DNA from: Escherichia phage vB_EcoM_G17
Strand: one strand, 5' to 3'
Length of the DNA stretch: 64,000 nt
Sequence record: MK327931.1
The first letter of the stretch is position 1, and each line of letters begins with the position of its first letter. The notes beneath the pieces were generated by a model. It ran no database searches and was not told the DNA's origin. It saw only the letters and a program-made list of their open reading frames with translations. Positions 51,489 to 63,415 of this stretch are shown here, piece after piece. The translations under genes were made by a program, and so were the position numbers.

Positions 51489-51505
51489 TTTTCTTTCCTC
51501 TCAGT

Positions 51506-51565: not shown

Positions 51566-51571
51566 TAGTTT

Positions 51572-51895: not shown

Positions 51896-51922
51896 TTATT
51901 GTTATCCTCTATTAAATTAATA

Positions 51923-52117: not shown

Positions 52118-52129
52118 TTCCTCTTAGTA

Positions 52130-52186
52130 GGGGAAGATGTTTCCCCTTGATGTAAGTACTATAACACTACTGGATAGTACTGTCAA
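52130..52186 (-). promoter_or_regulatory. promoter + 5' leader hairpin cassette
   Basis: -35 TTGACA 52181-86, 17-nt spacer, -10 TATAGT 52158-63; hairpin GGGGAA..TTCCCC 52130-46. Confidence 0.75.
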
Positions 52187-52192
52187 TACTTT

Positions 52193-52450: not shown

Positions 52451-52647
52451 TATTTTAACCTTTTTCTATCATTAATTAATGCTTTCAGTACTATACTAAT
52501 AACTTGCAATGATTCATCAATGACTATAAAATTATTTTCTTTCATTAGATGATAGTTACCATTGATATTATATTCTAACGAGTACTGTTTACGTTTAATT
52601 TTTGATAATGTTTCTATTTGTTTTTGTACTGATTTCATGCTAATCAT
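52450..52647 (-). CDS. hypothetical small protein
   Basis: 65-aa ORF, 1-nt overlap with the TraR-like gene. Confidence 0.65.
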   Translation of the reverse strand: MISMKSVQKQIETLSKIKRKQYSLEYNINGNYHLMKENNFIVIDESLQVISIVLKALINDRKRLK

Positions 52648-52723
52648 TGTTAAACGTCCTGTAACGCATTCTAACGAGATAAACGGTTTAGTACTGGCAT
52701 TGTATAGGGTAATGAATTAAAGC

Positions 52724-52731
52724 CCACCAGC
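52724..52731 (-). other. Chi octamer on minus strand (intergenic, inside hairpin AGCCCAC..GTGGGCT)
   Basis: plus strand reads CCACCAGC. Confidence 0.85.
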
Positions 52732-52752
52732 GTTAACCAGTGGGCTATAATC

Positions 52753-52896
52753 TTACATCTTGCGGATAATCTTAACAGTATCTTTCACCGATTTACCGTC
52801 TTGCTGGCATTGCTCGATCATTGCGTATTGTTCTGCGGTCAGATCCTCGCCAGTTTTTGCCAGTACTGCGTCGATGAATGAATCCAGTGCGATCAT
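52753..52896 (-). CDS. small protein (47 aa), paralog of 56635..56787
   Basis: below track cutoff; own promoter; C-term CQQDGKSVKDTVKIIRKM vs CAKHGKTINETASIIDKL. Confidence 0.55.
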   Translation of the reverse strand: MIALDSFIDAVLAKTGEDLTAEQYAMIEQCQQDGKSVKDTVKIIRKM

Positions 52897-52940
52897 TTTA
52901 TTTCTCTCTTAGGTTAAGTTAACTACTGTTTATAAAACTT

Positions 52941-52968
52941 ATTATACAGTACTATCAAACGTTGTCAA
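52941..52968 (-). promoter_or_regulatory. sigma70 consensus promoter
   Basis: -35 TTGACA 52963-68, 16-nt spacer, -10 TATAAT 52941-46. Confidence 0.7.
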
Positions 52969-52995
52969 TATATTTAATAGTACTGGTAATATATT

Positions 52996-53175
52996 TTAGC
53001 GGTAATCGTCGTATGCTTTATTCACCTGGCGAATGTAACTTTCAAAGGCTTCGTCTACCGTTTCATACTCCCGAACATAATCACCATAGGAAACTACATA
53101 CATACCTTTTTGATCTTCAAACGTCATGATGATAGAATCCAGACCAACGATTTCAGTTTTTGCGATGATAGCCAT
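52996..53175 (-). CDS. small protein (59 aa)
   Basis: below track cutoff; AAGGAAT SD region; own promoter. Confidence 0.55.
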   Translation of the reverse strand: MAIIAKTEIVGLDSIIMTFEDQKGMYVVSYGDYVREYETVDEAFESYIRQVNKAYDDYR

Positions 53176-53211
53176 TTTTTTAATTCCTTAGTAGTGTAGT
53201 TGATAAAACTT

Positions 53212-53240
53212 ATTATGCCAGTACTATCAATCATTGTCAA
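53212..53240 (-). promoter_or_regulatory. sigma70-like promoter (duplicate of 56060-56088)
   Basis: -35 TTGACA 53235-40, 17-nt spacer, -10 CATAAT 53212-17. Confidence 0.7.
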
Positions 53241-53268
53241 TAGCTTTGATAGTACTGTGATAATATTT

Positions 53269-53481
53269 TTAGTTAATGATAGTCAGTGTAAAATTGTAAT
53301 CACCACAGCGATATAGCACGTTATTCCCAAATGTTCCAACTAATCGCACATCACACAAAACGCCGGTTTTTTCTTTTACTTCCTTGATACTTGTAACTCC
53401 TGTAATATCTTTATTAAAGTATTCATGATCTGAAAATAAAACTTGTTTTGCATTTTTTAATTTCGACCGGATATTAGCCAT
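53269..53481 (-). CDS. hypothetical small protein
   Basis: 70-aa ORF. Confidence 0.7.
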   Translation of the reverse strand: MANIRSKLKNAKQVLFSDHEYFNKDITGVTSIKEVKEKTGVLCDVRLVGTFGNNVLYRCGDYNFTLTIIN

Positions 53482-53501
53482 TTTGTTTTCTCTCTGTTAG
53501 T

Positions 53502-53561
53502 GGGGAGAAGTTTTTCTCCCCTTGATGTAAACTATTATACAGTACTATAATCTATTGTCAA
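53502..53561 (-). promoter_or_regulatory. promoter + 5' leader hairpin cassette
   Basis: -35 TTGACA 53556-61, 16-nt spacer, -10 TATAAT 53534-39; hairpin GGGGAGAA-gttt-TTCTCCCC 53502-21. Confidence 0.8.
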
Positions 53562-53576
53562 ACTATTTTTTTTATA

Positions 53577-53918
53577 TTATTCGAAATCTTCTGGACCGGA
53601 CTGATAATCATCTTCACCGTATGCACTTTCTAACTTCTCGCCAGTGTGGTCATCAGTTAGTGAGTCATCCTCATAGTTCACGTCTACGCCAGTGATGTAA
53701 AACTGGCTATCGTCTGGATCATTGAAATTAATTTTCTGTATGTTTACAATAACTGTATTGATGCCCAGGACACCGCCATCAGCCGTTACAAAGTACTGAT
53801 ATTTTTCACAACCGCCTGAATTGAAACCGTAATTAATTTCGGCCCGACCATCATTTAAACGCAGTGCCTGAGCGATGATTTCATTTTCAAAGTTAGATTG
53901 AGCAATTGAGATAGTCAT
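53577..53918 (-). CDS. hypothetical acidic protein
   Basis: 113-aa ORF. Confidence 0.7.
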   Translation of the reverse strand: MTISIAQSNFENEIIAQALRLNDGRAEINYGFNSGGCEKYQYFVTADGGVLGINTVIVNIQKINFNDPDDSQFYITGVDVNYEDDSLTDDHTGEKLESAYGEDDYQSGPEDFE

Positions 53919-53938
53919 GATTTGTTTCCTTATTACCA

Positions 53939-53997
53939 GGGGAAACCGTTTCCCCTTTCGATGTAAAACATTATACGCTTATTGAGATAGTTTGCAA
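53939..53997 (-). promoter_or_regulatory. promoter + 5' leader hairpin cassette
   Basis: -35 TTGCAA 53992-97, 16-nt spacer, -10 TATAAT 53970-75; hairpin GGGGAAAC-cg-TTTCCCC 53939-55. Confidence 0.75.
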
Positions 53998-54041
53998 GTA
54001 CTTTTTAAAAATAGTTTTCAGTACTCAAACATTATACAATA

Positions 54042-54122
54042 GATACACTCCTGCACCCTGTGGGCTAGTGAGCTATCTCTCAATGAATATATAATAGCAA
54101 AATGGCTGACCGAAGTCAACCA
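54042..54122 (-). repeat. terminator/promoter/box module, copy 4
   Basis: hairpin TGGCTGAC..GTCAACCA 54103-22 (compensatory changes vs other copies), -35 TTGACT 54114-19; 17-nt spacer; -10 TATTAT 54091-96; box 54042-66. Confidence 0.65.
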
Positions 54123-54128
54123 CTTTTT

Positions 54129-54266
54129 TCATTTATTTTTAGCTTTTAGAATCGCCGCCTTTCGTGTCATTCCTTGTTTGATGTACTCCTTTACTTTCGC
54201 TTTTTTAGCGTTTACCTTGTCTGCTTTCGTTTTAGGAGTACTGTAAATTATACCGTTAGGATTCAT
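54129..54266 (-). CDS. small basic protein (45 aa)
   Basis: below track cutoff; directly follows the stop of the upstream micro-ORF. Confidence 0.45.
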   Translation of the reverse strand: MNPNGIIYSTPKTKADKVNAKKAKVKEYIKQGMTRKAAILKAKNK

Positions 54267-54356
54267 TTAAATCACCATAAAGAATAGATAGGTTACTAAC
54301 AACGCCGCGATCAATGCACCGACCAGGGCCGAACTATAGTAAGCTAATGTTTTCAT
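54267..54356 (-). CDS. hydrophobic micro-protein (29 aa)
   Basis: MKTLAYYSSALVGALIAALLVTYLFFMVI; ATGA-coupled upstream. Confidence 0.4.
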   Translation of the reverse strand: MKTLAYYSSALVGALIAALLVTYLFFMVI

Positions 54357-54505
54357 TTTTTAGCCTGAAAATAATGTTTAATTTGTGCGGCGGTCAATGC
54401 ACAATTACGCAGGAAGTTTTCTGTATAACTGCGGCGAGTACTGAAAGAGAATTGACCTTTGCCGTTGCCGATAGTAACATCAAACCGAGCGTTGTATTGT
54501 TTCAT
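54353..54505 (-). CDS. small protein (50 aa)
   Basis: below track cutoff; AAGGAGAA SD; cassette upstream. Confidence 0.55.
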   Translation of the reverse strand: MKQYNARFDVTIGNGKGQFSFSTRRSYTENFLRNCALTAAQIKHYFQAKK

Positions 54506-54524
54506 TTTGATTCTCCTTGTATCA

Positions 54525-54586
54525 GGGGAGAACCATTTCCCCCCCCTCTATGTAAACAATTATACAGTACTGGAAACTAATTGCAA
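54525..54586 (-). promoter_or_regulatory. promoter + 5' leader hairpin cassette
   Basis: -35 TTGCAA 54581-86, 16-nt spacer, -10 TATAAT 54559-64; hairpin from 54525. Confidence 0.75.
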
Positions 54587-54589
54587 GTA

Positions 54590-54736
54590 CTATTTTTTAG
54601 ATTTACGCAAACTTTCTACCATCTCAGGAGTAAGGCCCGGCGGGTAGGAAACCACTTCATCCACAAAACGCAAAGGGAATACCCCAGCGAAAGGTGAACG
54701 TGCTTTCTTGTTAGTACTCTTTTTTGATGCTTTCAT
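54590..54736 (-). CDS. small protein (48 aa)
   Basis: below track cutoff; cassette upstream; MKASKKSTNKKARSPFAG... Confidence 0.5.
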   Translation of the reverse strand: MKASKKSTNKKARSPFAGVFPLRFVDEVVSYPPGLTPEMVESLRKSKK

Positions 54737-54755
54737 TTCATATTCCTTAATTAGT

Positions 54756-54815
54756 GGGGAGAATCATTTCTCCCCTTCATGTAAAACATTATACAGTACT
54801 GAAAACTAATTGCAA
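54756..54815 (-). promoter_or_regulatory. promoter + 5' leader hairpin cassette
   Basis: -35 TTGCAA 54810-15, 16-nt spacer, -10 TATAAT 54788-93; hairpin GGGGAGAA-tcat-TTCTCCCC 54756-75. Confidence 0.8.
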
Positions 54816-55015
54816 GTACTATTTGAAAGTAAATGCTCATACGCTGCATTAACTACGTTTTCAATAACCGACTGTACAGAAAGATCCCCCACGTCCCGGC
54901 TATAGTAGAAATCGCTTACAGTGGTGTCATCGTATGCAAATACTTTACCAGGTACGGCATCAATCACATACATATTAACCTTTAAGATGTCGATCTTATC
55001 CTGTACAGTAAGCAT
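54806..55015 (-). CDS. hypothetical small protein
   Basis: 69-aa ORF. Confidence 0.65.
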   Translation of the reverse strand: MLTVQDKIDILKVNMYVIDAVPGKVFAYDDTTVSDFYYSRDVGDLSVQSVIENVVNAAYEHLLSNSTCN

Positions 55016-55020
55016 ATTAA

Positions 55021-55293
55021 TTAACCTTTTAAGTACTGGCTTAAGTAGTCTTGTTGATCTTCGGTGATTGCAGCCATCTTCCCTAGTACTGGATTGATGA
55101 TATAATCCCCTGTAACGTCCTGTAACGCATTCTCAGGCGGTTTAACGGCTGGGGTAGCCATAGCCATTGCCTGGACTTGTTCGACGCTGTAACGCTCATA
55201 AAGGCGGCATTCTTCCGGTGTTAACATAGCATCAGTACGCTTCATCGGTTTAATGATGCTTTCGATCTCATTCAGTACTTGATTAACGTTCAT
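55021..55293 (-). CDS. hypothetical small protein
   Basis: 90-aa ORF. Confidence 0.7.
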   Translation of the reverse strand: MNVNQVLNEIESIIKPMKRTDAMLTPEECRLYERYSVEQVQAMAMATPAVKPPENALQDVTGDYIINPVLGKMAAITEDQQDYLSQYLKG

Positions 55294-55344
55294 GGTATAA
55301 TCCCCAATATAAGCGGCCTGAATCGACCGCTAACGATGTTTTGA

Positions 55345-55614
55345 TTAATAGGTGTATGGTTGACGTTCAAACAATGATTGCACGTTGTACGCCCCACTAA
55401 TGGGCTTTGCTGGTAAATCAATTTTATATTGTTCACGCTTAAAGATAATAAAACGGCAATTGTTTTTTACATCAAAATTGATTGAACGTTCCAGGAGTTT
55501 TCCATCGTGTACAAATACAAGATAACCGCTTGCTACTTGTTTTGTAGTACTGGTTGCAACCATAGACCGACGAACATGCGTACCTGCATCGATTAAAGTA
55601 CTGATATTTTTCAT
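55345..55614 (-). CDS. hypothetical small protein
   Basis: 89-aa ORF. Confidence 0.7.
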   Translation of the reverse strand: MKNISTLIDAGTHVRRSMVATSTTKQVASGYLVFVHDGKLLERSINFDVKNNCRFIIFKREQYKIDLPAKPISGAYNVQSLFERQPYTY

Positions 55615-55652
55615 TATACGATCCTCTTAAGTTAATTTAATTTCTTTCCCCT

Positions 55653-55689
55653 ATGCAGACACTATATCAAAGTATCTGCATAAAGTAAA
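55653..55689 (-). promoter_or_regulatory. promoter bracketed by a palindromic operator-like repeat
   Basis: -35 TTTACT 55684-89, 17-nt spacer, -10 TATAGT 55661-66; 7-bp arms ATGCAGA (55653-59) / TCTGCAT (55675-81) flank the -10. Confidence 0.55.
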
Positions 55690-55694
55690 GCTAA

Positions 55695-56018
55695 TTAAAG
55701 ATCTTTTTTGCGTTTAACATTCTGTACAGTACAATGCAACGGGATATTAAGATCATTGCACACACGAGTAAGGGAGGTTTCATCAGTATTAAGCCCGTCT
55801 ACTGATTCCTTTAAGAGAGATAACGCCGTTTGTTGATATGCATCTTCATAGCCATAAGTAAATGATTCAACCGCCAGATCATTCAAACCGTTATCCAGTT
55901 CAACGCTTACATGACAAGAATGATAAGTATTGCCATATGAATCAGTCCAACGTTTACCGTCAACATTGATTGCACGGATTGCAGCCAGGGAAACGGTGTT
56001 AATGATAGTTTTAGCCAT
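55695..56018 (-). CDS. hypothetical protein, paralog of 49577..49900
   Basis: shared RWTDSYGNTYHSCHVS...FTYGY...VKRKKDL. Confidence 0.75.
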   Translation of the reverse strand: MAKTIINTVSLAAIRAINVDGKRWTDSYGNTYHSCHVSVELDNGLNDLAVESFTYGYEDAYQQTALSLLKESVDGLNTDETSLTRVCNDLNIPLHCTVQNVKRKKDL

Positions 56019-56059
56019 TTTTGTATTCCTTAAATTAATATGTTGTCTTGATAAAATCT

Positions 56060-56088
56060 ATTATGCCAGTACTATCAAACTATGTCAA
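56060..56088 (-). promoter_or_regulatory. sigma70-like promoter
   Basis: -35 TTGACA 56083-88, 17-nt spacer, -10 CATAAT 56060-65. Confidence 0.7.
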
Positions 56089-56107
56089 TAGTACTGTGAT
56101 AATATTT

Positions 56108-56251
56108 TTACTTACTTTTTGCTTTCTTTGCTGCTTCCACCTGGTCGGCCCATTCTTTACCCCATACTTGTAAATTATAATGGTACTGGCAAAGAGCAAC
56201 GCCCCGCTTTAAACCCGTAATAGATTTCTGACCACATTGACAAGTTTTCAT
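56108..56251 (-). CDS. small Cys-rich protein (47 aa)
   Basis: below track cutoff; MKTCQCGQKS...CQYH; cassette upstream. Confidence 0.55.
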   Translation of the reverse strand: MKTCQCGQKSITGLKRGVALCQYHYNLQVWGKEWADQVEAAKKAKSK

Positions 56252-56268
56252 TTTAGTTTCCTTGTAGT

Positions 56269-56328
56269 GGGGAGAACCATTTCTCCCCTTGATGTAATGT
56301 ATTATACTTTATTCGATTTACTTTGCAA
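56269..56328 (-). promoter_or_regulatory. promoter + 5' leader hairpin cassette
   Basis: -35 TTGCAA 56323-28, 16-nt spacer, -10 TATAAT 56301-06; hairpin GGGGAGAA-ccat-TTCTCCCC 56269-88. Confidence 0.8.
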
Positions 56329-56337
56329 GTACTTTTT

Positions 56338-56565
56338 TTAATTTAATTCATCCAGGCAAAGGATACGCTCAACGCCCAAATCAGTTAAACTAATCGACGG
56401 CACTTGATAGGTTTCAATGTATGCTACACTTGCCCACTGACCGAACTCATTAACGGCCCAGGTATTCATTGCATTTTGCAATTCCGCACCTTCCTTGTTG
56501 GTAATTACAGCAACAGTAGAAGAATTACCAGTAGTACCAGATACGCGAGTGATTACGATAGCCAT
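56338..56565 (-). CDS. hypothetical small protein
   Basis: 75-aa ORF. Confidence 0.7.
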   Translation of the reverse strand: MAIVITRVSGTTGNSSTVAVITNKEGAELQNAMNTWAVNEFGQWASVAYIETYQVPSISLTDLGVERILCLDELN

Positions 56566-56597
56566 TTTTTAATTCCTATTCAGTAGTTGATGTATGT

Positions 56598-56626
56598 ATT
56601 ATGTCAGTACTTAAAACTATTGTCAA
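56598..56626 (-). promoter_or_regulatory. sigma70-like promoter
   Basis: -35 TTGACA 56621-26, 17-nt spacer, -10 CATAAT 56598-603. Confidence 0.7.
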
Positions 56627-56634
56627 ACTATTTT

Positions 56635-56787
56635 TTAAAGTTTATCAATGATTGATGCCGTTTCATTGATAGTCTTGCCGTGTTTTGCACACGCGATAAC
56701 TGCTTTAAATTCCTTTGATGACCAATCTTTCTTGCTGCATACTGACATTACTTGTAAAGTAAAACAATCCAGTTCATAAGTATTCAT
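56635..56787 (-). CDS. small protein (50 aa), paralog of 52753..52896
   Basis: below track cutoff; own promoter. Confidence 0.55.
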   Translation of the reverse strand: MNTYELDCFTLQVMSVCSKKDWSSKEFKAVIACAKHGKTINETASIIDKL

Positions 56788-56832
56788 CTTTAAATCCTCA
56801 GTTAGTTAAGGTGTCTCGCCTTGATGTAATTA

Positions 56833-56860
56833 ATTATACGCTAATCTCTTAATCGTGCAA
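56833..56860 (-). promoter_or_regulatory. sigma70-like promoter
   Basis: -35 TTGCAC 56855-60, 16-nt spacer, -10 TATAAT 56833-38. Confidence 0.65.
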
Positions 56861-56925
56861 GTACTTTTTATTACTTTTTGCAAAATACTTTAAACGCTCT
56901 CAATCGCATTCTAACGACCTTAACT

Positions 56926-56933
56926 CCACCAGC
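56926..56933 (-). other. Chi octamer on minus strand (intergenic)
   Basis: plus strand reads CCACCAGC. Confidence 0.85.
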
Positions 56934-57002
56934 TAGGGCGATGTATCAGATAATCAGTTTAATGCGTTAGGCGGTGCTAGTGGACTGGAATACTATAGAC
57001 AC

Positions 57003-57029
57003 AAAAAAGCCCACTGTTTAAGGTGGGCT
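57003..57029 (-). terminator. rho-independent terminator (copy 1 of an identical ~40-bp repeat)
   Basis: AGCCCAC-8nt-GTGGGCT followed by T6 on minus strand after 57051..57533. Confidence 0.85.
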
Positions 57030-57050
57030 AGTGATTCAGTACTTTAATTT

Positions 57051-57533
57051 TTATGCTTCAACTTTGCGATGAGCTTCGATCCATTCCTCGCGAGTCATAC
57101 CGCTTTCTTTGATAGCGTCCAGTACTACCGCAATGCAGTTACCGCGTACAGGAATCAAATGTTCTTCCCCGTTATCAAGTACTACCGCTACACGTTCCTG
57201 AATCCATTTTTTAGGCTTAGATTCCGGCTTATCTTCACCATACTTAACCGCCAGGGCTTTATGTGCCATTTCCACAACCACTTCCAGATCCAATCCAGAC
57301 ACTGCCGCCTGAATACTTTCAATTGTTGCTTGTAGTTCTGCTTCACGGGCTTTTTTCTGTTCTTCCAGTTCTGCTACCTTTTTGGCTTGCAGTTCTTTCG
57401 CAGTACTGTACGCAATGTTAAAATTGTTGCGTACCGCTTTCATGGTATCGCTATCCAGTTCAGCCAGGATTTCTGCCGCTACGTTAGTTTCATTTGCTAC
57501 CAGTGCTTTGATGAATGATTTTACATTAGCCAT
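57051..57533 (-). CDS. hypothetical protein with a central coiled-coil-like segment
   Basis: trimmed to MANVKSF; KELQAKKVAELEEQKKAREAELQATIESIQ. Confidence 0.75.
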   Translation of the reverse strand: MANVKSFIKALVANETNVAAEILAELDSDTMKAVRNNFNIAYSTAKELQAKKVAELEEQKKAREAELQATIESIQAAVSGLDLEVVVEMAHKALAVKYGEDKPESKPKKWIQERVAVVLDNGEEHLIPVRGNCIAVVLDAIKESGMTREEWIEAHRKVEA

Positions 57534-57589
57534 TTTATAAATCCTCAATTAAAGTTTAGTTTACGTTAGATAGTGTATCAAAGTTTTCT

Positions 57590-57647
57590 CGACGTGTCCA
57601 GTTTTTCGTTCGACTTACTGGCGGTCTACTTAGTGCTCCCCGTCTTG
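57590..57647 (-). promoter_or_regulatory. conserved leader element, diverged copy 3
   Basis: shares GTTTTTCG, CTTACT, CTACTTA and CCCCGTCTTGATG blocks with 50606-50674 and 60594-60664. Confidence 0.35.
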
Positions 57648-57656
57648 ATGTAATAC

Positions 57657-57684
57657 ATTCTACGCTTTTCTGTGGTAATGTCAA
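57657..57684 (-). promoter_or_regulatory. sigma70-like promoter
   Basis: -35 TTGACA 57679-84, 16-nt spacer, -10 TAGAAT 57657-62. Confidence 0.65.
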
Positions 57685-57738
57685 CTACTTTTTTAAAACT
57701 ATTTTTAAAGTATCTCAGTACTACGATACTACAAAAAC

Positions 57739-57765
57739 AAAAAAGCCCACTGTTTAAGGTGGGCT
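57739..57765 (-). terminator. rho-independent terminator (copy 2 of an identical repeat)
   Basis: same AGCCCAC..GTGGGCT stem followed by T6 after 57783..58082. Confidence 0.85.
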
Positions 57766-57782
57766 AGTGATTCAGTACTAGA

Positions 57783-58082
57783 TTATAAACAGTTAATTAC
57801 TCCGGTGTGCGTTACTTTCTCAGTATCCATAACCGTGACCGATCCACGCTTAGTACTGGCATCATAATAAATTGTGGTGCTACCGTTTTCGTCTTCTTCA
57901 TGGAACGGGCCGTTTTTAAATGCTTCCGGCTGGATCTCTAAATCCTTTAATACAATCTCGCCAGTTCTTTCATCGGTCATTGCAACAGTGCACTGAATGA
58001 ATTTTTCATTACTTACATCTAATGACGCATTAACAGCGAAAGAGGAAACAGATAAAGCCAGGGCGATGATTGCAATTTTCAT
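57783..58082 (-). CDS. secreted/periplasmic small protein
   Basis: N-term signal peptide MKIAIIALALSVSSFAVNA. Confidence 0.75.
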   Translation of the reverse strand: MKIAIIALALSVSSFAVNASLDVSNEKFIQCTVAMTDERTGEIVLKDLEIQPEAFKNGPFHEEDENGSTTIYYDASTKRGSVTVMDTEKVTHTGVINCL

Positions 58083-58102
58083 TTGATTATCCTTAGTTAC
58101 CA

Positions 58103-58161
58103 GGGGGAACCGCTCCCCCTTGCTATGTAAAATATTATACAGTACTAAAAACTAATTGCAA
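58103..58161 (-). promoter_or_regulatory. promoter + 5' leader hairpin cassette
   Basis: -35 TTGCAA 58156-61, 16-nt spacer, -10 TATAAT 58134-39; hairpin GGGGGAA-ccg-CTCCCCC 58103-19. Confidence 0.75.
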
Positions 58162-58166
58162 GTACT

Positions 58167-58403
58167 TTATGATTTTTTATAAAACATTTCGGCAGTGATA
58201 TTTTTACCCGTTGGCTGTACTTTATCCAGAATTTTTTGATGCCCTGGCCGTCCAAATGAATATGATCCGTAAACCGTAAACCAGTAGTTACCCTCAGTGT
58301 TTACATGTACAGCACAATAGGGAACGCCCCGCGATTCATCACTAGTAAAGTGTGCTACCGTTCCCGTTACATTCGAAGTCGTTGATTTGATTTGTTCAAG
58401 CAT
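58167..58403 (-). CDS. hypothetical small protein
   Basis: 78-aa ORF. Confidence 0.7.
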   Translation of the reverse strand: MLEQIKSTTSNVTGTVAHFTSDESRGVPYCAVHVNTEGNYWFTVYGSYSFGRPGHQKILDKVQPTGKNITAEMFYKKS

Positions 58404-58424
58404 TTTCTTATTCCTTAGTTACCA

Positions 58425-58477
58425 GGGGAACCGCTCCCCTATGCAAAACATTATACGCGTTTAAAAACTAATAGCAA
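58425..58477 (-). promoter_or_regulatory. promoter + 5' leader hairpin cassette
   Basis: -35 TTGCTA 58472-77, 16-nt spacer, -10 TATAAT 58450-55; hairpin 58425-39. Confidence 0.7.
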
Positions 58478-58510
58478 GTATTTTAATAAAAAGTATTTGG
58501 AAAATAATTG

Positions 58511-58539
58511 TTGACAAGTGCATCCAGTACTGGCATAAT
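58511..58539 (+). promoter_or_regulatory. plus-strand sigma70 promoter, divergent from 58450-58477
   Basis: -35 TTGACA 58511-16, 17-nt spacer, -10 CATAAT 58534-39. Confidence 0.65.
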
Positions 58540-58545
58540 TACTAC

Positions 58546-58654
58546 ATCAAGACGAAACAGTCACTAACCCACCGGGTGCATAGATCCGTCTATTAAATGA
58601 TTCAGTACTGAAAAAGTAACGGGGAGTTATTATCTCCCCGCGTTGTTATTTTGT
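58546..58654 (+). ncRNA. candidate ~110-nt plus-strand small RNA
   Basis: own promoter; hairpin GAC-gaaaca-GTC; box AACCCACCGGGTGCATAG 58566-83; ATAGA-tccg-TCTAT; terminal hairpin CGGGGAG-7nt-CTCCCCG 58620-40 followed by a U-rich tail; no ORF. Confidence 0.4.
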
Positions 58655-58867
58655 AAGGTATAAACAGAAGTCACCTTTATTTGCTACGCCGCCAGTGTAA
58701 CGCGATGAATAGTTAGAAATATCTTGTACTTCTGCTATTACCAGTGTATCATCATTCATTTCGTCGCAGAAGCAAACGGCTGGATCTTTTACGCCGATAT
58801 TGTCGGCATGTTCCCGCATAGATTTAACCAGTGCTTCCAGTTGAGAAAGAGTAGTGATATTAGCCAT
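58646..58867 (-). CDS. hypothetical small protein
   Basis: trimmed to MANITTLSQ. Confidence 0.7.
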   Translation of the reverse strand: MANITTLSQLEALVKSMREHADNIGVKDPAVCFCDEMNDDTLVIAEVQDISNYSSRYTGGVANKGDFCLYLTK

Positions 58868-58886
58868 TGTATTTTCCTCATTACCA

Positions 58887-58945
58887 GGGAGAACCATTTC
58901 TCCCCTCTATGTAAACTATTATACAGTACTGAAAACTAATTGCAA
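58887..58945 (-). promoter_or_regulatory. promoter + 5' leader hairpin cassette
   Basis: -35 TTGCAA 58940-45, 16-nt spacer, -10 TATAAT 58918-23; hairpin 58887-904. Confidence 0.75.
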
Positions 58946-58953
58946 GTACTTTT

Positions 58954-59157
58954 TTAATTTAATTGCTTTAAAACATACTCAAAGACACCACGCACATCAT
59001 TGATCATCGCCTGGCGGTTAGCAGGTAACGCATCAGGATCGCCACTATCCCAGGCATTGATAAAACTCCCCAAATCATGATAGATTTTATTCTGTAAGCC
59101 GATTAACTGTAATTCTTTTTCTTCAAGCTCTTTGATGCGGTCGATTAAATCACTCAT
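58954..59157 (-). CDS. hypothetical small protein
   Basis: trimmed to MSDLIDRIKE after GAGGA. Confidence 0.65.
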   Translation of the reverse strand: MSDLIDRIKELEEKELQLIGLQNKIYHDLGSFINAWDSGDPDALPANRQAMINDVRGVFEYVLKQLN

Positions 59158-59174
59158 TAGATAATCCTCAGTAC

Positions 59175-59459
59175 TTAACTGTAAGATCCGCAACGGTCGC
59201 AGTAGTGCCCGTCCTCGTCATCGTCAACGAATTGACCGACGAAATGATCTACTTTCGCTTTCAGGTTATTATAATCGTTTTCTACTTCATTTAAACGCTT
59301 CTGGTAGTATTCCAGTGCTTTAAGATATGCCGCATCAGCAGTTTTCTCCTGCATAGCTAAATTCATGCCACGCGTTTCATCGTACAGCCAAAAACCATCG
59401 GTGCACTGGCTAATAGATAATGACTTGCTTAGTACTGTATAGTTAATTACTTTACCCAT
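59175..59459 (-). CDS. hypothetical small protein
   Basis: 94-aa ORF; C-term HYCDRCGSYS. Confidence 0.7.
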   Translation of the reverse strand: MGKVINYTVLSKSLSISQCTDGFWLYDETRGMNLAMQEKTADAAYLKALEYYQKRLNEVENDYNNLKAKVDHFVGQFVDDDEDGHYCDRCGSYS

Positions 59460-59477
59460 TAGATAATCCTCAGTAAA

Positions 59478-59537
59478 GGCGGGAACTATTCCCCGCCTCG
59501 ATATAAAGTATTATACGTTAATCTAACTACAATGCAA
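59478..59537 (-). promoter_or_regulatory. promoter + 5' leader hairpin cassette
   Basis: -35 TTGCAT 59532-37, 16-nt spacer, -10 TATAAT 59510-15; hairpin GGCGGGAA-cta-TTCCCCGCC 59478-97. Confidence 0.75.
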
Positions 59538-59551
59538 GTACTTTTTAAATT

Positions 59552-59818
59552 TTATAATCCTTTTACTGCATCAGGTGCGACTACTCCATCAATGTATTGA
59601 ACATCGTTTTCAACTTCACGGGCGGCATCATTCAGCAGATCAAAATTAAATTCCATTTCTTCCAGATCATCGAAATCAGGCTCATAACCATTAATTGTTG
59701 AATAAGTCCAAGTACCTTTTTCATAAGTTACGACACTTACATCAGGGAAGAAATCTTGCACATGATCCATCGCATCCCGAACCAATTGATGTGCAGTTGT
59801 GATATTTAAAGTTTTCAT
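59552..59818 (-). CDS. hypothetical small protein
   Basis: 88-aa ORF. Confidence 0.7.
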   Translation of the reverse strand: MKTLNITTAHQLVRDAMDHVQDFFPDVSVVTYEKGTWTYSTINGYEPDFDDLEEMEFNFDLLNDAAREVENDVQYIDGVVAPDAVKGL

Positions 59819-59839
59819 TTTGTTGCCCTTTTAGTGTGA

Positions 59840-59899
59840 GCGGGGAACCACTCCCCGCCTCGATGTAAAGTATTATACGCTTTTAAACTTAGTTTGCAA
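59840..59899 (-). promoter_or_regulatory. promoter + 5' leader hairpin cassette
   Basis: -35 TTGCAA 59894-99, 16-nt spacer, -10 TATAAT 59872-77; hairpin GCGGGGAA-cca-CTCCCCGC 59840-58. Confidence 0.75.
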
Positions 59900-59911
59900 G
59901 TACTTTTTAAA

Positions 59912-60523
59912 TTAATATGCGATTGATTCTACTACGTCATCAATAACATTGAATTGATATTCGTTACCCTCAATCAGTGCCGTAATGTTTTCAGTAGTGA
60001 ATTGATCCTCATATGCATTCTCTAAATCACGGTACAACTTGCGGGATAATTCACGAATAGTTTCAGTGAGTAGTTCCTCAAGCTCATTAACTAACGTTTC
60101 TTGTTTTGCGGTTAAATCAGTGTAAGCCGATTCAATGTACCCGCTTACAGTATTCTCATGCGAGTAGTGGGAGTGAGAACGCTTTACACTCATCGCCAAA
60201 TCATCTTCATTCAGCAGGTGACGGATTGAGCGATACTTAGTTAATGCTCTTACCTTGCGTAAAAACTTCACTGCGTCAACGTGGTCAGTACTGATTGATG
60301 CACCGTCACCCTGGGACCAAAAACCACTGAATTGTATTTCAGCTTCATTAATGCCATATTCCGGTAGTACTGTTTCTTTATAGTATTCAATTTCACTTTC
60401 AGAAAAATAATTGTCGTTTGAGTTTTTTTCACGTTCCCGAACCAGTTCGATAGCTGACGTTTTTTGTTCTGCGTTCAATTCAGAAAAATCCATAACGAAA
60501 GTAGTAGTAGTGATAGTTTTCAT
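59912..60523 (-). CDS. hypothetical protein
   Basis: 203-aa ORF; motif FSGFWSQGDGASIS, family not identified. Confidence 0.75.
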   Translation of the reverse strand: MKTITTTTFVMDFSELNAEQKTSAIELVREREKNSNDNYFSESEIEYYKETVLPEYGINEAEIQFSGFWSQGDGASISTDHVDAVKFLRKVRALTKYRSIRHLLNEDDLAMSVKRSHSHYSHENTVSGYIESAYTDLTAKQETLVNELEELLTETIRELSRKLYRDLENAYEDQFTTENITALIEGNEYQFNVIDDVVESIAY

Positions 60524-60555
60524 TTTGTAACCCTCATTCAGTAGTTGATGTAAGT

Positions 60556-60583
60556 ATTATACGCTTTTAAAAACATTTGTCAA
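60556..60583 (-). promoter_or_regulatory. sigma70-like promoter (proximal of a tandem pair)
   Basis: -35 TTGACA 60578-83, 16-nt spacer, -10 TATAAT 60556-61. Confidence 0.7.
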
Positions 60584-60593
60584 ACTATTTTAT

Positions 60594-60664
60594 CAGGGGA
60601 GTTTTTCGTGTGCCTTACTCCTGGGCTACTTAACGGGAAGTTACTTATTTCGTTCCCCGTCCTG
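60594..60664 (-). promoter_or_regulatory. conserved ~70-nt leader element, copy 2
   Basis: near-copy of 50606-50674. Confidence 0.45.
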
Positions 60665-60673
60665 ATGTAAAAC

Positions 60674-60701
60674 ATTATACGCCTTTAAACATAGTTTGCA
60701 A
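60674..60701 (-). promoter_or_regulatory. sigma70-like promoter (distal of a tandem pair)
   Basis: -35 TTGCAA 60696-701, 16-nt spacer, -10 TATAAT 60674-79. Confidence 0.7.
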
Positions 60702-60746
60702 GTACTTTTTAAAAATAGTTTTCAGTACTGAATATTTAAAAAAGTA

Positions 60747-60810
60747 TTGACAGCATTATCAAGTACTGGCATAATATACCCCATGACAACAGCTAACCCA
60801 CCGGGTGCAC
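60747..60810 (+). promoter_or_regulatory. plus-strand promoter followed by a box (plus sense)
   Basis: -35 TTGACA 60747-52, 17-nt spacer, -10 CATAAT 60770-75; box AACCCACCGGGTGCAC 60795-810. Confidence 0.6.
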
Positions 60811-60842
60811 AATTGTAACTATACTAAACTACTTTTTCTATA

Positions 60843-60919
60843 GATACACTCCCGCACCCTATGGGCTACGGCTTATCTGCCAATGAATACATTATGCCAG
60901 TACTGACAAAATAAGTCAA
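60843..60919 (-). promoter_or_regulatory. minus-strand promoter followed by a box, convergent with 60747-60810
   Basis: -35 TTGACT 60914-19, 17-nt spacer, -10 CATAAT 60891-96; box AGCCCATAGGGTGCGGGAGTGTATC 60843-67. Confidence 0.6.
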
Positions 60920-60949
60920 TACCGGCAATTGTAAAGATTTGTAAACTGC

Positions 60950-61180
60950 TTATACTGCAATCGCGTCCAGGCTATAATAATAATAAGTGCCGTATTGGTG
61001 TACTTTATTACCTTTTATTTCAGTACTGAATGAATCCGAACGGTTTGCATATGATGTTAATTTAAAGTACTTTGATTTGCTGATACGTTGCCATACACCG
61101 CAGATCCGCTGTAAGTAAGTAGTTTTATTCGTGGTAGTATCTTTTACAGTTTTAACTTCAGTCATATACATATTAGTCAT
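60950..61180 (-). CDS. hypothetical small protein
   Basis: 76-aa ORF. Confidence 0.7.
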   Translation of the reverse strand: MTNMYMTEVKTVKDTTTNKTTYLQRICGVWQRISKSKYFKLTSYANRSDSFSTEIKGNKVHQYGTYYYYSLDAIAV

Positions 61181-61201
61181 TTTTATTACTCCAGGTTATA
61201 G

Positions 61202-61260
61202 GCGGGAAGAGTTCCCGCTCTCGATGTAAAACATTATACGCCATTAAACATAGTTTGCAA
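61202..61260 (-). promoter_or_regulatory. promoter + 5' leader hairpin cassette
   Basis: -35 TTGCAA 61255-60, 16-nt spacer, -10 TATAAT 61233-38; hairpin GCGGGAA-gag-TTCCCGC 61202-18. Confidence 0.75.
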
Positions 61261-61267
61261 GTACTTT

Positions 61268-61534
61268 TTATTCAAGTACTGCAATCTTTTTAGTACGGTA
61301 CACGGTCACGCGGTTGCCCTTTCGGTCGAGCTTTATTTCTACCACTCGACGCGATACACTATCAGGACTTTTCAACGCCGCTAACCAGTACTGTAATGAT
61401 CTGGCGGTACTACGCTTTATAATGGCCCAACGTTTACCACGTTCCGATTGTACGCCCATATCTTTAAACGTTGCCCCGTCCTGGCGTGCGGCGATCCGAG
61501 CTTGTTCACGCGTCGCAAAATACTTAATATTCAT
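61268..61534 (-). CDS. hypothetical protein, paralog of 49086..49490
   Basis: trimmed to MNIKYFATREQARIAARQDGATFKDMG; C-term DRKGNRVTVYRTKK. Confidence 0.75.
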   Translation of the reverse strand: MNIKYFATREQARIAARQDGATFKDMGVQSERGKRWAIIKRSTARSLQYWLAALKSPDSVSRRVVEIKLDRKGNRVTVYRTKKIAVLE

Positions 61535-61619
61535 GCTGTTGCCCTTATCGTTGGTGTATGAATAAAACACTATTATAAAGTACTATCGCAAAAAATGATA
61601 GTACTTTAAATAAATTCTA

Positions 61620-61859
61620 TTACATTCCAACCATTGCAGCACGGATCGCAGTAGTGCTATATTTGAATCCGTCCGGCGTTTTATCTTGTCCAGTCTGTTC
61701 TAAAAATAACATCATATGACGGGCCGCATCATTACGATTAGTATTGGCGGCAATAAAGTCCTGGGCCAACCGGTATAATGATTCATCGTTATTAATCCAA
61801 AGGCTTACATTCCAATGAGTTTTGTTTTTGTGACCTAAGAACATTTTTGATTTAGCCAT
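61620..61859 (-). CDS. hypothetical small protein
   Basis: trimmed to MAKSKMFLGHK. Confidence 0.7.
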   Translation of the reverse strand: MAKSKMFLGHKNKTHWNVSLWINNDESLYRLAQDFIAANTNRNDAARHMMLFLEQTGQDKTPDGFKYSTTAIRAAMVGM

Positions 61860-61879
61860 TTTTTTAATCCTCTTATATA

Positions 61880-61938
61880 GTGGGGAACTATTCCCCACCT
61901 GATGTAAAACATTATACGCTTTTAAACATAGTTTGCAA
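61880..61938 (-). promoter_or_regulatory. promoter + 5' leader hairpin cassette
   Basis: -35 TTGCAA 61933-38, 16-nt spacer, -10 TATAAT 61911-16; hairpin GTGGGGAA-cta-TTCCCCAC 61880-97. Confidence 0.75.
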
Positions 61939-61952
61939 GTACTTTATTAAAC

Positions 61953-62315
61953 TTATTCGTAAATTTTGCCACTGTCAGCCCATACCAGGAAACGAGGCAT
62001 ATTATCCCATGCATCTTGTTTTAAATTTAAACCGTGTAATACTTCTGTACTTTCCATTCCTGGTACTGGTTTACTATACACCGCGAAATTTTCGCCCATA
62101 TACTGATAAACCATCGTCAAATCACTGGCGATCATCTTATGGATCATCGCATCAAGCATCACGGTAGCGGCGTATTGTTCACGCTTAAGCGGCAACATTG
62201 TAATAAGTTCCCGATAAGCTGAAATGTGAATTTTTACCGTTTCAGCCGGAAGACCTTTCATCTCTTCACGGAAGTTGACCAGGTTAGAAATAATTTTATT
62301 GATTTGGGTCGCCAT
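61953..62315 (-). CDS. hypothetical protein
   Basis: trimmed to MATQINKII. Confidence 0.7.
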   Translation of the reverse strand: MATQINKIISNLVNFREEMKGLPAETVKIHISAYRELITMLPLKREQYAATVMLDAMIHKMIASDLTMVYQYMGENFAVYSKPVPGMESTEVLHGLNLKQDAWDNMPRFLVWADSGKIYE

Positions 62316-62339
62316 CGTATTAATCTCTTTTAAAGTGTA

Positions 62340-62398
62340 GCGGGAAGTGTTCCCGCTCTCGATGTAAAACATTATACGCCTTTAAACATAGTTTGCAA
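62340..62398 (-). promoter_or_regulatory. promoter + 5' leader hairpin cassette (rightmost protein-coding unit)
   Basis: -35 TTGCAA 62393-98, 16-nt spacer, -10 TATAAT 62371-76; hairpin GCGGGAA-gtg-TTCCCGC 62340-56. Confidence 0.75.
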
Positions 62399-62634
62399 GT
62401 ACTTTCTACATGTACTTTTAAAATAGTTTTCTTTCTATATAGGGGAACTATCATTCAGTACTATTATTCAGTACTGAATCAACCAAATCACTACTACACC
62501 CCATAAAACGGCCTCAGACGCATTCTAACGCATTAATACACCTAAGCTATACATTTGCACCATTCCAATCATTCCAGGGCTTTACGGGCCGTTTAAACGC
62601 GTTAAATTATTTTCAATTATTTTGTTTTTAGCTA

Positions 62635-62720
62635 TTGACTCAGTACAGAAAAAGCGTATAATTACTACATAGACGCGAGAAAGCGGAAACCCCAGAGGGT
62701 GCGGAATTACGCCCAAAATT
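62635..62720 (+). promoter_or_regulatory. plus-strand promoter followed by a box
   Basis: -35 TTGACT 62635-40, 16-nt spacer, -10 TATAAT 62657-62; hairpin CGC-gagaaa-GCG; box ACCCCAGAGGGTGCGGAATTACGCCCAAAATTC. Confidence 0.55.
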
Positions 62721-62736
62721 CAAGATATAAAAAAAG

Positions 62737-62816
62737 GATACACTCCCGCACCCTAGCAGGTAAACGCACTTTCTCAGTACTGAAATATAGTACCATAGTC
62801 CGGCCCAGGATAGCAA
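62737..62816 (-). promoter_or_regulatory. minus-strand promoter followed by a box, convergent with 62635-62720
   Basis: -35 TTGCTA 62811-16, 18-nt spacer, -10 TACTAT 62787-92; box CCTGCTAGGGTGCGGGAGTGTATCC 62737-60. Confidence 0.5.
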
Positions 62817-62850
62817 GCAAATTAATTAAAACTTTTTTGCTTCCAGGGTA

Positions 62851-62936
62851 TTGCTTTATTTTTTCAGTACTGTATAATAGTTCCATCAAGTCGAGAAAGA
62901 CTCAAGCCCACCGGGTGCATAGTTACGCCCAAAATT
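62851..62936 (+). promoter_or_regulatory. plus-strand promoter followed by a box
   Basis: -35 TTGCTT 62851-56, 16-nt spacer, TGnTATAAT 62873-78; hairpin GTC-gagaaa-GAC; box AGCCCACCGGGTGCATAGTTACGCCCAAAATTC 62905-36. Confidence 0.55.
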
Positions 62937-62974
62937 CAGTACTGAAAAAATTTTTAAAAATATCCGTCCAGGCC

Positions 62975-63003
62975 GTTGACATTGCCCCCAGTTTATAAGA
63001 TAA
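62975..63003 (+). promoter_or_regulatory. plus-strand sigma70-like promoter
   Basis: -35 TTGACA, 17-nt spacer, -10 GATAAT; followed by GGGGAAACTATCCCC hairpin near 63041-55. Confidence 0.45.
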
Positions 63004-63101
63004 TGATTCCAGATTCAGAAAAATCTAACTCCAGATACTGCGGGGAAACTATCCCCACGCGGTAGGGGAACTATTGGAAAAAACAAAATAAAATTTTGAT
63101 T

Positions 63102-63215
63102 TAGCCGTCTATACTTCCAGACGTGTAACCATCTAGCCGTTTAGCCGTCCAAACGTCTAGCCATCCAGAAATCTAGCCGTCTAGATGGATAGCCATCTTT
63201 ACTTCCAGACTTCTG
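63102..63215. repeat. iteron-like short direct repeats plus small palindromes
   Basis: (C)TAGCC(G/A)T(C/T) at ~63102, 63133, 63142, 63157, 63173, 63190; ACTTCCAGAC twice; palindromes AGATGG-atag-CCATCT and CCAGA-ct-TCTGG. Confidence 0.6.
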
Positions 63216-63395
63216 GAGGGCTAGACATATCTACGCCCAAAATCCATCCAGGGTAACTACACCCAAAATCCGTCAGTACTATACCATAGATCTATCTTTT
63301 GAAAGGGAGTATTCAGTACTGCCATCATAGCCCTCACTATGTTACCCTAGGAGGATGAAGACCATCATGTAGTACTGAATACTGTTAGAGGGAAT

Positions 63396-63415
63396 CCACC
63401 AGCACAAGCTGGTGG
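63396..63415. other. palindromic Chi pair (one Chi on each strand)
   Basis: CCACCAGC-acaa-GCTGGTGG, exact. Confidence 0.85.

Follow-up and report, generated by a model that had tools for sequence, protein, structure and literature searches.

A promoter-coupled family of short structured RNAs in the terminal repeat of RaK2-like jumbo phages

What is the role of a short motif that follows promoter after promoter, in either orientation and in several cases with no gene behind it? The question is raised by a stretch of 64,000 nucleotides from Escherichia phage vB_EcoM_G17 (MK327931.1; this whole stretch is hereafter called the window), in which such a box occurs ten times. A reading of the letters alone had described the box as GCCCAC-N-GGGTGC, had placed each copy on the transcribed strand just downstream of a promoter, and had proposed either a family of cis-antisense or small RNAs, or a switch based on convergent transcription. 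Here we show that the box is the signature of a family of short structured RNAs that had not been described before, each copy being equipped with its own strong host-type promoter. Three facts had escaped this sequence-only reading: the box is one part of a module of ~45–50 nt, the module is confined to the direct terminal repeat (DTR), and it is conserved among RaK2-like jumbo phages.

The box, its promoter and the adjoining hairpin

The ten-copy family is real, but its first definition was too narrow: the literal GCCCAC-N-GGGTGC matches just four copies, and we therefore adopted RCCCAYNGGGTGC as the consensus, which is represented by nine exact copies and one degenerate copy, all ten within the DTR. 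Mismatch-free occurrences of CCCANNGGGTGC number nine against 0.46 expected – a count reached by none of 100 shuffles – and lie at 58568, 60797, 62691 and 62907 on the plus strand and at 44749, 47496, 50770, 54053 and 60854 on the minus strand; the tenth, degenerate copy (62748, minus strand) reads CTGCTAGGGTGC. A model built solely on the sequences of the ten copies recovers exactly those ten in the window. The start coordinates first given for the minus-strand copies mark the 3' ends of the conserved module and not of the 12-mer, the sites themselves being real.

Each of the ten boxes lies on the transcribed strand, at approximately +20 to +32 downstream of a sigma70 promoter. A promoter scan lists eight of these: on the plus strand TTGACA-17-CATAAT at 58511 and at 60747 and TTGACT-16-TATAAT at 62635, and on the minus strand TTGACT-17-CATAAT at 60919 and TTGACT-17-TATTAT at 54119, 50831, 47562 and 44810. 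All but the promoter at 62635 carry an extended -10 TG (7/8). Direct reading of the sequence adds TTGCTT-16-TATAAT at 62851 and, on the minus strand, TTGCTA-18-TACTAT at 62816, so that all promoters claimed earlier are present. The accompanying claim that these are the only credible plus-strand transcription units does not stand: a further good promoter, TTGACA-17-GATAAT at 62976, is not associated with a box.

The sequence-only reading had suggested that a covariance-type model be built and used to search databases. Model searches detected 67 copies in the records of six phages, which represent four named genera and, in Munch, an unclassified phage: 10 in the window, 11 in vB_Ec-M-J, 12 in Pectobacterium phage CBB, 14 in Cronobacter phage GAP32, 11 in Klebsiella phage K64-1 and 9 in Salmonella phage Munch. 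A promoter (TTG...-17-TAnnnT) stands at a fixed distance from the box in 67 of 67 copies.

Alignment of 170 nt around every copy from the six records shows how the module is built. The promoter conforms to TTGACn-17-TAtaAT, in which TTG is near-invariant and the A and T of the -10 hexamer are invariant, and a conserved CA start lies ~7 nt past the -10. Transcription from this start would first yield a hairpin (P1) that begins at about +4 and consists of a stem of 3–5 bp and a purine- or A-rich loop of 6–7 nt (GAGAAA, GCGAAA, AGAUAA, AGAACAA). There follow a linker of 3–5 nt (YWR), the invariant RCCCAYNGGGUGC at ~+20 to +32, five variable bases, and a 3' segment – U12-N-Y14-R15-Y16-Y17-Y18, counted from the first G of GGGUGC – that is able to pair with GGGUG. 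Conservation extends over these 5' ~45–50 nt alone, irrespective of the sequence downstream, and a comparison of four genera shows stronger conservation in the transcribed 12-mer than in the promoter.

If P1 is a helix in RNA, then changes on one side of its stem should be matched on the other. The sequence-only reading had noticed small hairpins with compensatory changes beside three of the plus-strand boxes: these are real and extend to the whole family, in which some 30 kinds of P1 stem are found (among them TGAG/CTCA, TGGC/GCCG, AGTC/GACT, GAC/GTC, CGC/GCG, GGAA/TTCC, GGAG/CTCC, AGCA/TGCT, ACCG/CGGT, GCCA/TGGC and ACCAC/GUGGU). In a model-fitted alignment two-sided change is seen at all four pairs, in 22–25 of 64 distinct sequences, and the covariation score of P1 is 0.360 as compared to 0.157 for shuffles (0 of 500 reached the observed value) and at most 0.118 when the partners were slid against each other. 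Since this alignment leaves the register of about one third of the copies uncorrected, the test understates the pairing. An alignment-free test of the 5' segment gave a mean folding energy of -3.09 kcal/mol, compared to -0.79 kcal/mol for shuffled sequences (z = -15). RNAalifold, applied to the model-fitted alignment, recovered the CCC:GGG pairing alone; it misses P1 because the register of P1 differs among copies, and P1 was therefore tested separately. Because some stems contain G-U pairs (TGGC/GCCG), which work on one strand only, the helix is specific to the transcribed strand. On this evidence P1 is an RNA hairpin with strong compensatory covariation.

Two further pairings involve the GGG of the box, and they are mutually exclusive. 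The first (P2, CCC:GGG) shows no variation except for R:U switching between A-U and G-U, and is thus neither supported nor contradicted. The second (P3) joins GGGUG to positions +14 to +18: 92% of cells are paired, and the 3' strand changes only in ways that preserve pairing (Y/G, R/U), which suggests that the pairing is real, the signal being one-sided and inseparable from transition bias. Among 56 units surveyed in five phages, thermodynamic prediction favours P2 in 26 and P3 in 13. A long closing helix between 5' AGAUA/AGACG and 3' UAUCU/CGUCU, which appeared in several minimum-energy folds, was rejected: complementarity is 9.65 for native and 9.78 for swapped partners (permutation p = 0.71).

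An invariant box beside variable P1 stems is what one would expect of a recognition site and not of a base-pairing arm. Base-pairing targets were also sought: in the window the complement of the box core, GCACCC, occurs on the mRNA-sense strand solely at the plus-strand units, and no obvious phage mRNA target was found there.

Confinement to the terminal repeat

The segment 58400–63400 is identical (100%) to the corresponding segment of Escherichia phage Sharanji (OR545507.1), an Asteriusvirus of 350 kb, and ~90–97% identical to PBECO4/121Q-like jumbo phages. Comparison with the ends of vB_Ec-M-J places the segment within a DTR that spans 43333–64000 of the window (minus strand): position 1 of vB_Ec-M-J equals window position 64000 and the end of its annotated DTR (1–21525) equals ~43333, as read in both sequences, and because these bounds match, 43333–64000 is the terminal repeat in reverse. 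By the annotation of vB_Ec-M-J, base 64000 is therefore the physical end of the genome and 43333 the inner boundary of the repeat. The published length of the Sharanji DTR, 20,668 bp (PMC11895373), is exactly that of 43333–64000. In the GenBank record of Sharanji, which is permuted, the terminal repeat lies at ~15.8–36.4 kb and is not annotated. Just past the window end, at ~36.7–40.7 kb of that record, is a 6-kb stretch with four annotated genes, which contains an apparent series of unannotated paralogous small minus-strand ORFs (open reading frames) with recurring ...GAATACTACACA...CAT starts as read on the plus strand.

The repeat is the early, host-takeover end of RaK2-like jumbo phages. 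It contains ~50 tiny ORFan genes; within it each of the small minus-strand early genes has its own sigma70 promoter, and below 43300, outside the DTR, genes overlap in the manner of operons.

The family is specific to this repeat. Every copy in vB_Ec-M-J and CBB lies inside the annotated terminal repeat, and none was found in the 8–10 kb beyond these repeats, in window positions 1–43332, or at 36.4–60 kb of the Sharanji record. In phage TH47, whose 352-kb genome was scanned in full, 11 copies fall in a single 16-kb stretch, the next match having E = 9.4. Further copies occur in RaK2, in 121Q and in uncultured jumbo contigs: scanning IMG/VR with a promoter-plus-box pattern produced true copies solely from jumbo contigs (109–378 kb), and the short contigs that matched the pattern did so by chance, the model finding no match in them. 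A host origin, or mimicry of a host promoter-leader, was rejected: among 185,579 bacterial and archaeal genomes there were two pattern matches, both in unrelated metagenome-assembled genomes and both failing the model. The DTR of the related Pseudomonas phage PA5oct contains no copy (best model match, E = 0.28). Rfam 15 gave no match at gathering score in the whole window and, at E≤5 in 43000–64000, three weak matches of which none overlaps a unit; ARAGORN found no tRNA or tmRNA gene in the window. Searches of the open-access literature on Sharanji, CBB, Asteriusvirus, RaK2, phAPEC6, PBECO4, 121Q, relatives of PA5oct and other RaK2-like phages turned up no account of the motif. Particular subtypes of unit (for example CGC-GAGAAA-GCG and TGGC-AGAUAA-GCCG) recur at syntenic sites across genera.

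Such strict confinement might point to a function of the DNA itself that is tied to the genome end: R-loops or primers formed at the units could serve replication origins of the T4-like kind, or the box could be a protein-binding site for DNA entry, end protection or packaging. T4-like origins combine a promoter with an AT-rich unwinding element, and in the units G-rich RNA (GGGUGCGGGAG) is followed by AT-rich DNA. RaK2-like phages carry T4-type replication genes (PMC5259590), paired units occupy a conserved position near the terminus, and other end features are close by – an inverted Chi pair, repeats with a period of 8 nt, and four ACRCCCAAAAT motifs within 1.3 kb of the end. But two-sided covariation of P1, together with G-U pairs that work on one strand, indicates selection on a folded single strand and not on a duplex; 10–14 origins in 20 kb are implausible; and the box shows no palindromic or directly repeated structure. 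Given the RNA covariation, we consider a function at the DNA level improbable.

The end features merit description in their own right. Chi sites (GCTGGTGG) number 11 in the window as compared to 0.41 expected and lie in 44695–63415 and at 4128; nine are on the gene-sense (minus) strand within the terminal repeat, those at 44695 and 50743 directly follow box units, and an inverted pair, CCACCAGCacaaGCTGGTGG, is found at 63396–63415, ~600 bp from the physical end. Their orientations would suit a protection of both genome ends against RecBCD. At 63100–63230, 770–900 bp from the genome end, is an array with an 8-nt period (TCTAGCCG / TTTAGCCG / TCCAAACG / TCTAGCCA / TCCAGAAA...) in which repeats of 16 and 32 nt and an imperfect inverted repeat of 49 nt can also be read; it looks iteron-like and may be concerned with origin function, packaging or end recognition. 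ACRCCCAAAAT occurs in four exact plus-strand copies (62709, 62925, 63233 and 63259) in 560 bp near the terminus, two being 3' tails of plus-strand box units and two standing alone among terminal repeats.

The units and what lies downstream of them

Units differ in what they read into. Six of the ten copies in the window are gene-sense leaders that read into the next gene promoter, and four have no downstream gene: orientation is independent of genes, and ~40% of all copies face away from genes altogether. Units are dispersed, ~0.1–4.5 kb apart, each with its own promoter. Type III antitoxin-like RNAs consist of tandem repeats of ~34–45 nt beside a toxin gene; no tandem array is present at any unit.

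In four gene-sense units the -35 hexamer TTGACT is contained in the 5' arm of a strong terminator-like hairpin of 9–12 bp (AAAGGGATTGACTCCGGTCAGTCCCTTT, of 12 bp), and relatives show the same design with a UUCG loop. These composite hairpins lie at 44790–44817, 47542–47569, 50811–50838 and 54099–54126. The first unit (44737–44810, minus strand; TTGACT-17-TATTAT, the -35 in hairpin 44817–44790) has a weak P1, TAG-acaaaaa-CTA, a box at 44761–44749 and the 3' segment GTATCT. The second (47484–47562, minus), with hairpin 47569–47542 over the -35, P1 TGAG-agataa-CTCA and its box at 47508–47496, is followed by a regular promoter and the gene at 47138–47434. The third (50758–50831, minus) combines hairpin 50838–50811 over its -35 with a box at 50782–50770 and has a Chi site (50743–50750) directly 3'; the fourth (54041–54119, minus) combines hairpin 54126–54099 over its -35 with P1 TGAG-agatag-CTCA and a box at 54065–54053, the next promoter being at 53997. 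As far as can be predicted, the strong terminator whose stem holds their -35 shields these gene-sense copies from upstream read-through. Gene-sense solo copies in the five phages are followed at +44 to +85 by a regular early promoter and have no terminator, save for three in which P3 and a U-run form one; since the next promoter follows with no terminator between, gene-sense units would head a longer mRNA isoform.

A terminator stem-loop joined to a sigma70 early promoter is the hallmark of the PeSLs (promoter-early stem-loops), named by Comeau, Arbiol and Krisch in T4-like phages (PMC4122927). It is present in the upstream half of four of the ten units in the window and in many copies in relatives, and is absent from the plus-strand units; the promoters are near-consensus, and the units, like PeSLs, separate cassettes of small ORFan genes, here within a hyperplastic region. 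The units might then be selfish or recombinogenic promoter/terminator repeats that shuffle cassettes, the transcribed box having no function of its own. However, the 3' end of a PeSL is formed by the Shine-Dalgarno sequence and start codon of the gene that follows, neither of which is found in the box units: a conserved non-coding module is transcribed instead and leads into a promoter, a terminator or a partner unit. The units also occur in antisense and convergent arrangement and are confined to the DTR. Greater conservation of the 12-mer than of the promoter across four genera, and covariation in P1, imply selection on the RNA itself, and the synteny of subtypes between genera also speaks against shuffling. 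With the transcribed part so conserved, we regard this explanation as highly improbable.

Gene-antisense solo copies are different. In the window the unit at 58511–58652 (plus strand) comprises a promoter at 58511–58539, a start near A58546, P1 GAC-gaaaca-GTC at 58551–58562, a box at 58567–58579, a 3' segment that ends at 58591, and a terminator hairpin at 58620–58640 with a U-rich tail: the predicted RNA is ~105 nt long (58546–58652). This terminator is bidirectional and precedes the stop codon of the convergent gene; the predicted RNA stops just short of that codon and so overlaps no coding sequence. A second antisense solo unit (62851–62930, plus), directed toward the genome end, has TTGCTT-16-TATAAT, P1 AGTC-gagaaa-GACT, a box at 62906–62918 and the tail ACGCCCAAAATTC, with no clear terminator downstream. 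This unit, with its box at 62907, maps ~1.1 kb from position 1 in those relatives, such as vB_Ec-M-J, whose records open with the physical terminus. Among eight such solo copies in the five phages a GC-rich hairpin plus U-run is found at +43 to +47 in five, or in seven if AGTACTGG/CCAGTACT hairpins are counted. These copies are probably free-standing RNA genes, with products predicted at ~100 nt.

The remaining units form two pairs in which a plus and a minus promoter face each other, as had been claimed. In pair 1 the plus member (60747–60820; TTGACA-17-CATAAT, weak P1, box 60796–60808) opposes a gene-sense minus member (60842–60919; TTGACT-17-CATAAT, P1 TGGC-agataa-GCCG, box 60866–60854), with 56 nt between the first G of GGGTGC in both partners. 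In pair 2 the plus member (62635–62714; TTGACT-16-TATAAT, P1 CGC-gagaaa-GCG, box 62690–62702, a GGGTG:CGCCC pairing and the A-rich tail ACGCCCAAAATTC) opposes a minus member (62726–62816; TTGCTA-18-TACTAT, P1 GTACT-gagaa-AGTGC) with the degenerate box CTGCTAGGGTGC. The GGGTGC of the latter is the 5' arm of an intrinsic terminator (62754–62735 plus T7), so that its RNA would end in AGGGUGCGGGAGUGUAUCCU plus U7 and would measure ~55–60 nt (62785–62728). A promoter of its own, no ORF and an intrinsic terminator – the marks of a free-standing small RNA – thus coincide in 58511–58652(+), in 62816–62726(-) and in five to seven of the eight antisense solo copies in relatives, but not in the gene-sense solo copies. 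The earlier suggestion of small RNAs is supported in that several copies look free-standing, with promoter, module and terminator and no ORF.

If the function resided in convergence, facing promoters would collide or would yield fully complementary (double-stranded) RNAs, and so set a regulatory state. Pairs are present in all five phage groups examined, ~10 in total; the tails of the partners differ, being U-rich in one and A-rich in the other; the spacing from first G to first G is conserved (exactly 56 nt in Asteriusvirus, CBB and GAP32; 67–74 nt in K64-1 and Munch); and in vB_Ec-M-J, CBB and Munch a distance of 1.0–1.3 kb separates the first pair from the physical end. Yet just 4 of the 10 copies in the window, and ~20 of 56 across phages, are paired: solo copies are the majority, share the invariant module, and are left unexplained by a switch. 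Nor is there a coding sequence that is overlapped, or a regulated gene downstream of either partner near the terminus. Since the solo copies have no place in it, a convergent or cis-antisense switch seems improbable. As to the proposal of cis-antisense regulation of genes, no copy in the window is antisense to a coding sequence, the partner unit being the sole target; what stands of that interpretation is a strand-specific, promoter-tied family of small RNAs with RNA structure backed by covariation.

Regular early genes have a leader motif of their own. In nearly all of them a hairpin in the 5' untranslated region (UTR), GGGGAAnnnnTTCCCC or GCGGGAAnnnTTCCCGC, lies between TTGCAA-16-TATAAT and the ribosome-binding site (for example at 53930–53960, 59480–59500, 59840–59860, 61205–61222, 61880–61900 and 62340–62360). 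Two loci have a good promoter and the usual UTR hairpin with no ORF: 60600–60701 (minus; TTGCAA-16-TATAAT at 60701) and 62976–63080 (plus, toward the genome end; TTGACA-17-GATAAT at 62976). These may be further non-coding transcripts or decayed gene cassettes. A palindrome, CAGTACTG, occurs 63 times in the whole window against 0.79 expected, inside and outside the terminal repeat, and often in promoter spacers (58525, 60898, 62865) or just upstream of -35 boxes; it may be the operator of a global regulator or a signal related to methylation or restriction.

A proposed ligand in trans or a possible element in cis

What, then, does the module do? Our favoured reading, held tentatively, is that the invariant box lies at the core of a structured RNA module coupled to a promoter, and that the 5' ~45–50 nt of this module function as RNA, most likely in trans, as a protein-bound ligand or decoy. 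Three observations lead us to favour an RNA that acts in trans and is recognized by a protein: ~40% of copies have no downstream gene, only the 5' 45–50 nt are conserved, and variable stems stand beside an invariant 12-mer. According to this hypothesis, host RNA polymerase would make module RNAs once the terminal repeat – with its 10–14 copies – enters the cell, starting at the conserved CA from a near-consensus sigma70 promoter, usually with an extended -10; the abundant RNA would then serve as ligand or decoy of a conserved protein, of host or phage, and its 3' continuation would be irrelevant, be it a terminator (at ~55 or ~105 nt), an mRNA of which the module is the head, or a facing partner. 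High copy number, near-consensus promoters and location in the takeover repeat fit a product that is needed in bulk within the first minutes, before translation. We infer that the RNA is itself the functional product, that it accumulates and acts in trans, and that its partner is a protein.

Precedent for non-coding transcription from a terminal repeat comes from PA5oct, where RNA sequencing showed highly transcribed DTR-encoded non-coding RNAs, ncRNA001 and ncRNA002 (PMC7318152). PA5oct belongs to the same broad clade and its loci likewise lie in a long terminal repeat; its RNAs, however, are 236–451 nt long and have no described promoter-coupled repeated motif, and homology was rejected because model search gave no match in sequence or structure. 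They are a precedent and not homologues.

Several facts weigh against a trans-acting RNA. Six of the ten copies in the window lack a terminator and would be mRNA 5' leaders, for which a role in cis fits equally well. The pairs keep a conserved spacing and stand ~1 kb from the genome end, which suggests that their function depends on location; an RNA acting purely in trans would have no need of this. Finally, the CCC:GGG and GGGUG:3' pairings are mutually exclusive, and neither is proven by two-sided covariation.

The main alternative is a cis-acting, co-transcriptional element: nascent P1-plus-box RNA, or else the non-template strand of the box, would act on polymerase that has only just cleared the promoter, modifying it or causing it to pause, either as a processive antiterminator akin to put or nut or as an attenuator based on P2 and P3. 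The fixed distance from the promoter (67 of 67 copies) is as expected, and gene-sense copies immediately follow strong terminators and lead gene blocks of ~3 kb within which more terminators occur. Exclusive pairing of GGG would provide the two states of an attenuator: P3 is 92% paired and changes in a pair-preserving manner, and it forms a true terminator in the 62748(-) copy and in copies from GAP32 and CBB. P1 would end ~11 nt before G1, the geometry of a hairpin pause. The consensus elemental pause is GG-N8-YG, which G2G3-N8-U12G13 matches. Moreover, putL of HK022 likewise lies directly after an early promoter (PMC9378689). Against this, the ~40% of copies that face away from genes lead mostly into a terminator or a partner, which would be pointless for an antiterminator; there is neither a boxA nor an ops sequence; the module is far smaller than put, with its ~70 nt, two long stems and triplex; and most copies lack a U-run after P3. 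We judge a cis-acting element to be rather unlikely.

Set beside known systems, the units are best described as putative phage early non-coding, promoter-proximal RNA elements, with no family membership established. The nearest functional analogue is put (putL/putR), the cis-acting antiterminator RNA of HK022, which is likewise structured, devoid of an ORF, transcribed by host polymerase and placed directly after a sigma70 early promoter on the transcribed strand (PMC9378689). But put measures ~70–74 nt, folds into two long stem-loops, of which stem I contains a triplex, and is present in two copies per genome, always upstream of genes (PMC9378689), whereas the units are ~45–50 nt long, contain an invariant 12-mer, number 10–14 per repeat in both orientations, often meet a terminator at once, and have helices of 3–6 bp as the only supported ones; the put architecture is not found in them. 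Likeness to lambda nut is loose: P1 resembles boxB in being a small hairpin of variable stem and G/A-rich loop near early promoters on the transcribed strand, but its loop is of 6–7 nt and not a GNRA-like pentaloop, it adjoins the invariant RCCCAYNGGGUGC, and many copies have no operon. Matches to boxA (CGCUCUUA / UGCUCUUUAACAA) are at chance level (9 against 8.3 expected), with none near a unit. The RfaH ops element is similarly a strictly oriented, invariant 12-mer in a promoter-proximal leader with a possible tiny hairpin in the non-template strand, but its sequence is different (GGCGGTAGNNTG has no match at up to one mismatch) and the covarying P1 next to the box points to RNA and not to non-template DNA.

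A bolder reading is conceivable, although on balance doubtful: an RNA-only device for host takeover, immediate-early and expressed from at least 20 promoter copies per genome, that loads on host RNA polymerase as a miniature put and alters elongation or termination, or titrates a conserved enterobacterial RNA-binding or defence protein before translation, with a separate, end-specific role for the convergent pair ~1 kb from the end.

RaK2-like jumbo phages (PBECO4, 121Q, RaK2, GAP32, CBB and relatives) are being isolated for therapy. For the early programme of these phages the analysis provides a covariance model of the module, together with its exact coordinates and the predicted sizes of the RNAs; in addition, the finding marks the physical genome end and the boundaries of the terminal repeat in records that were deposited permuted. 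The box modules are driven by the best host-type promoters of the terminal repeat region and, because RNA can act before translation, the module RNA is an obvious candidate for the opening step of takeover or counter-defence. Should it act on polymerase instead, it would join put as only the second kind of phage RNA that brings about antitermination or pausing independently of protein.

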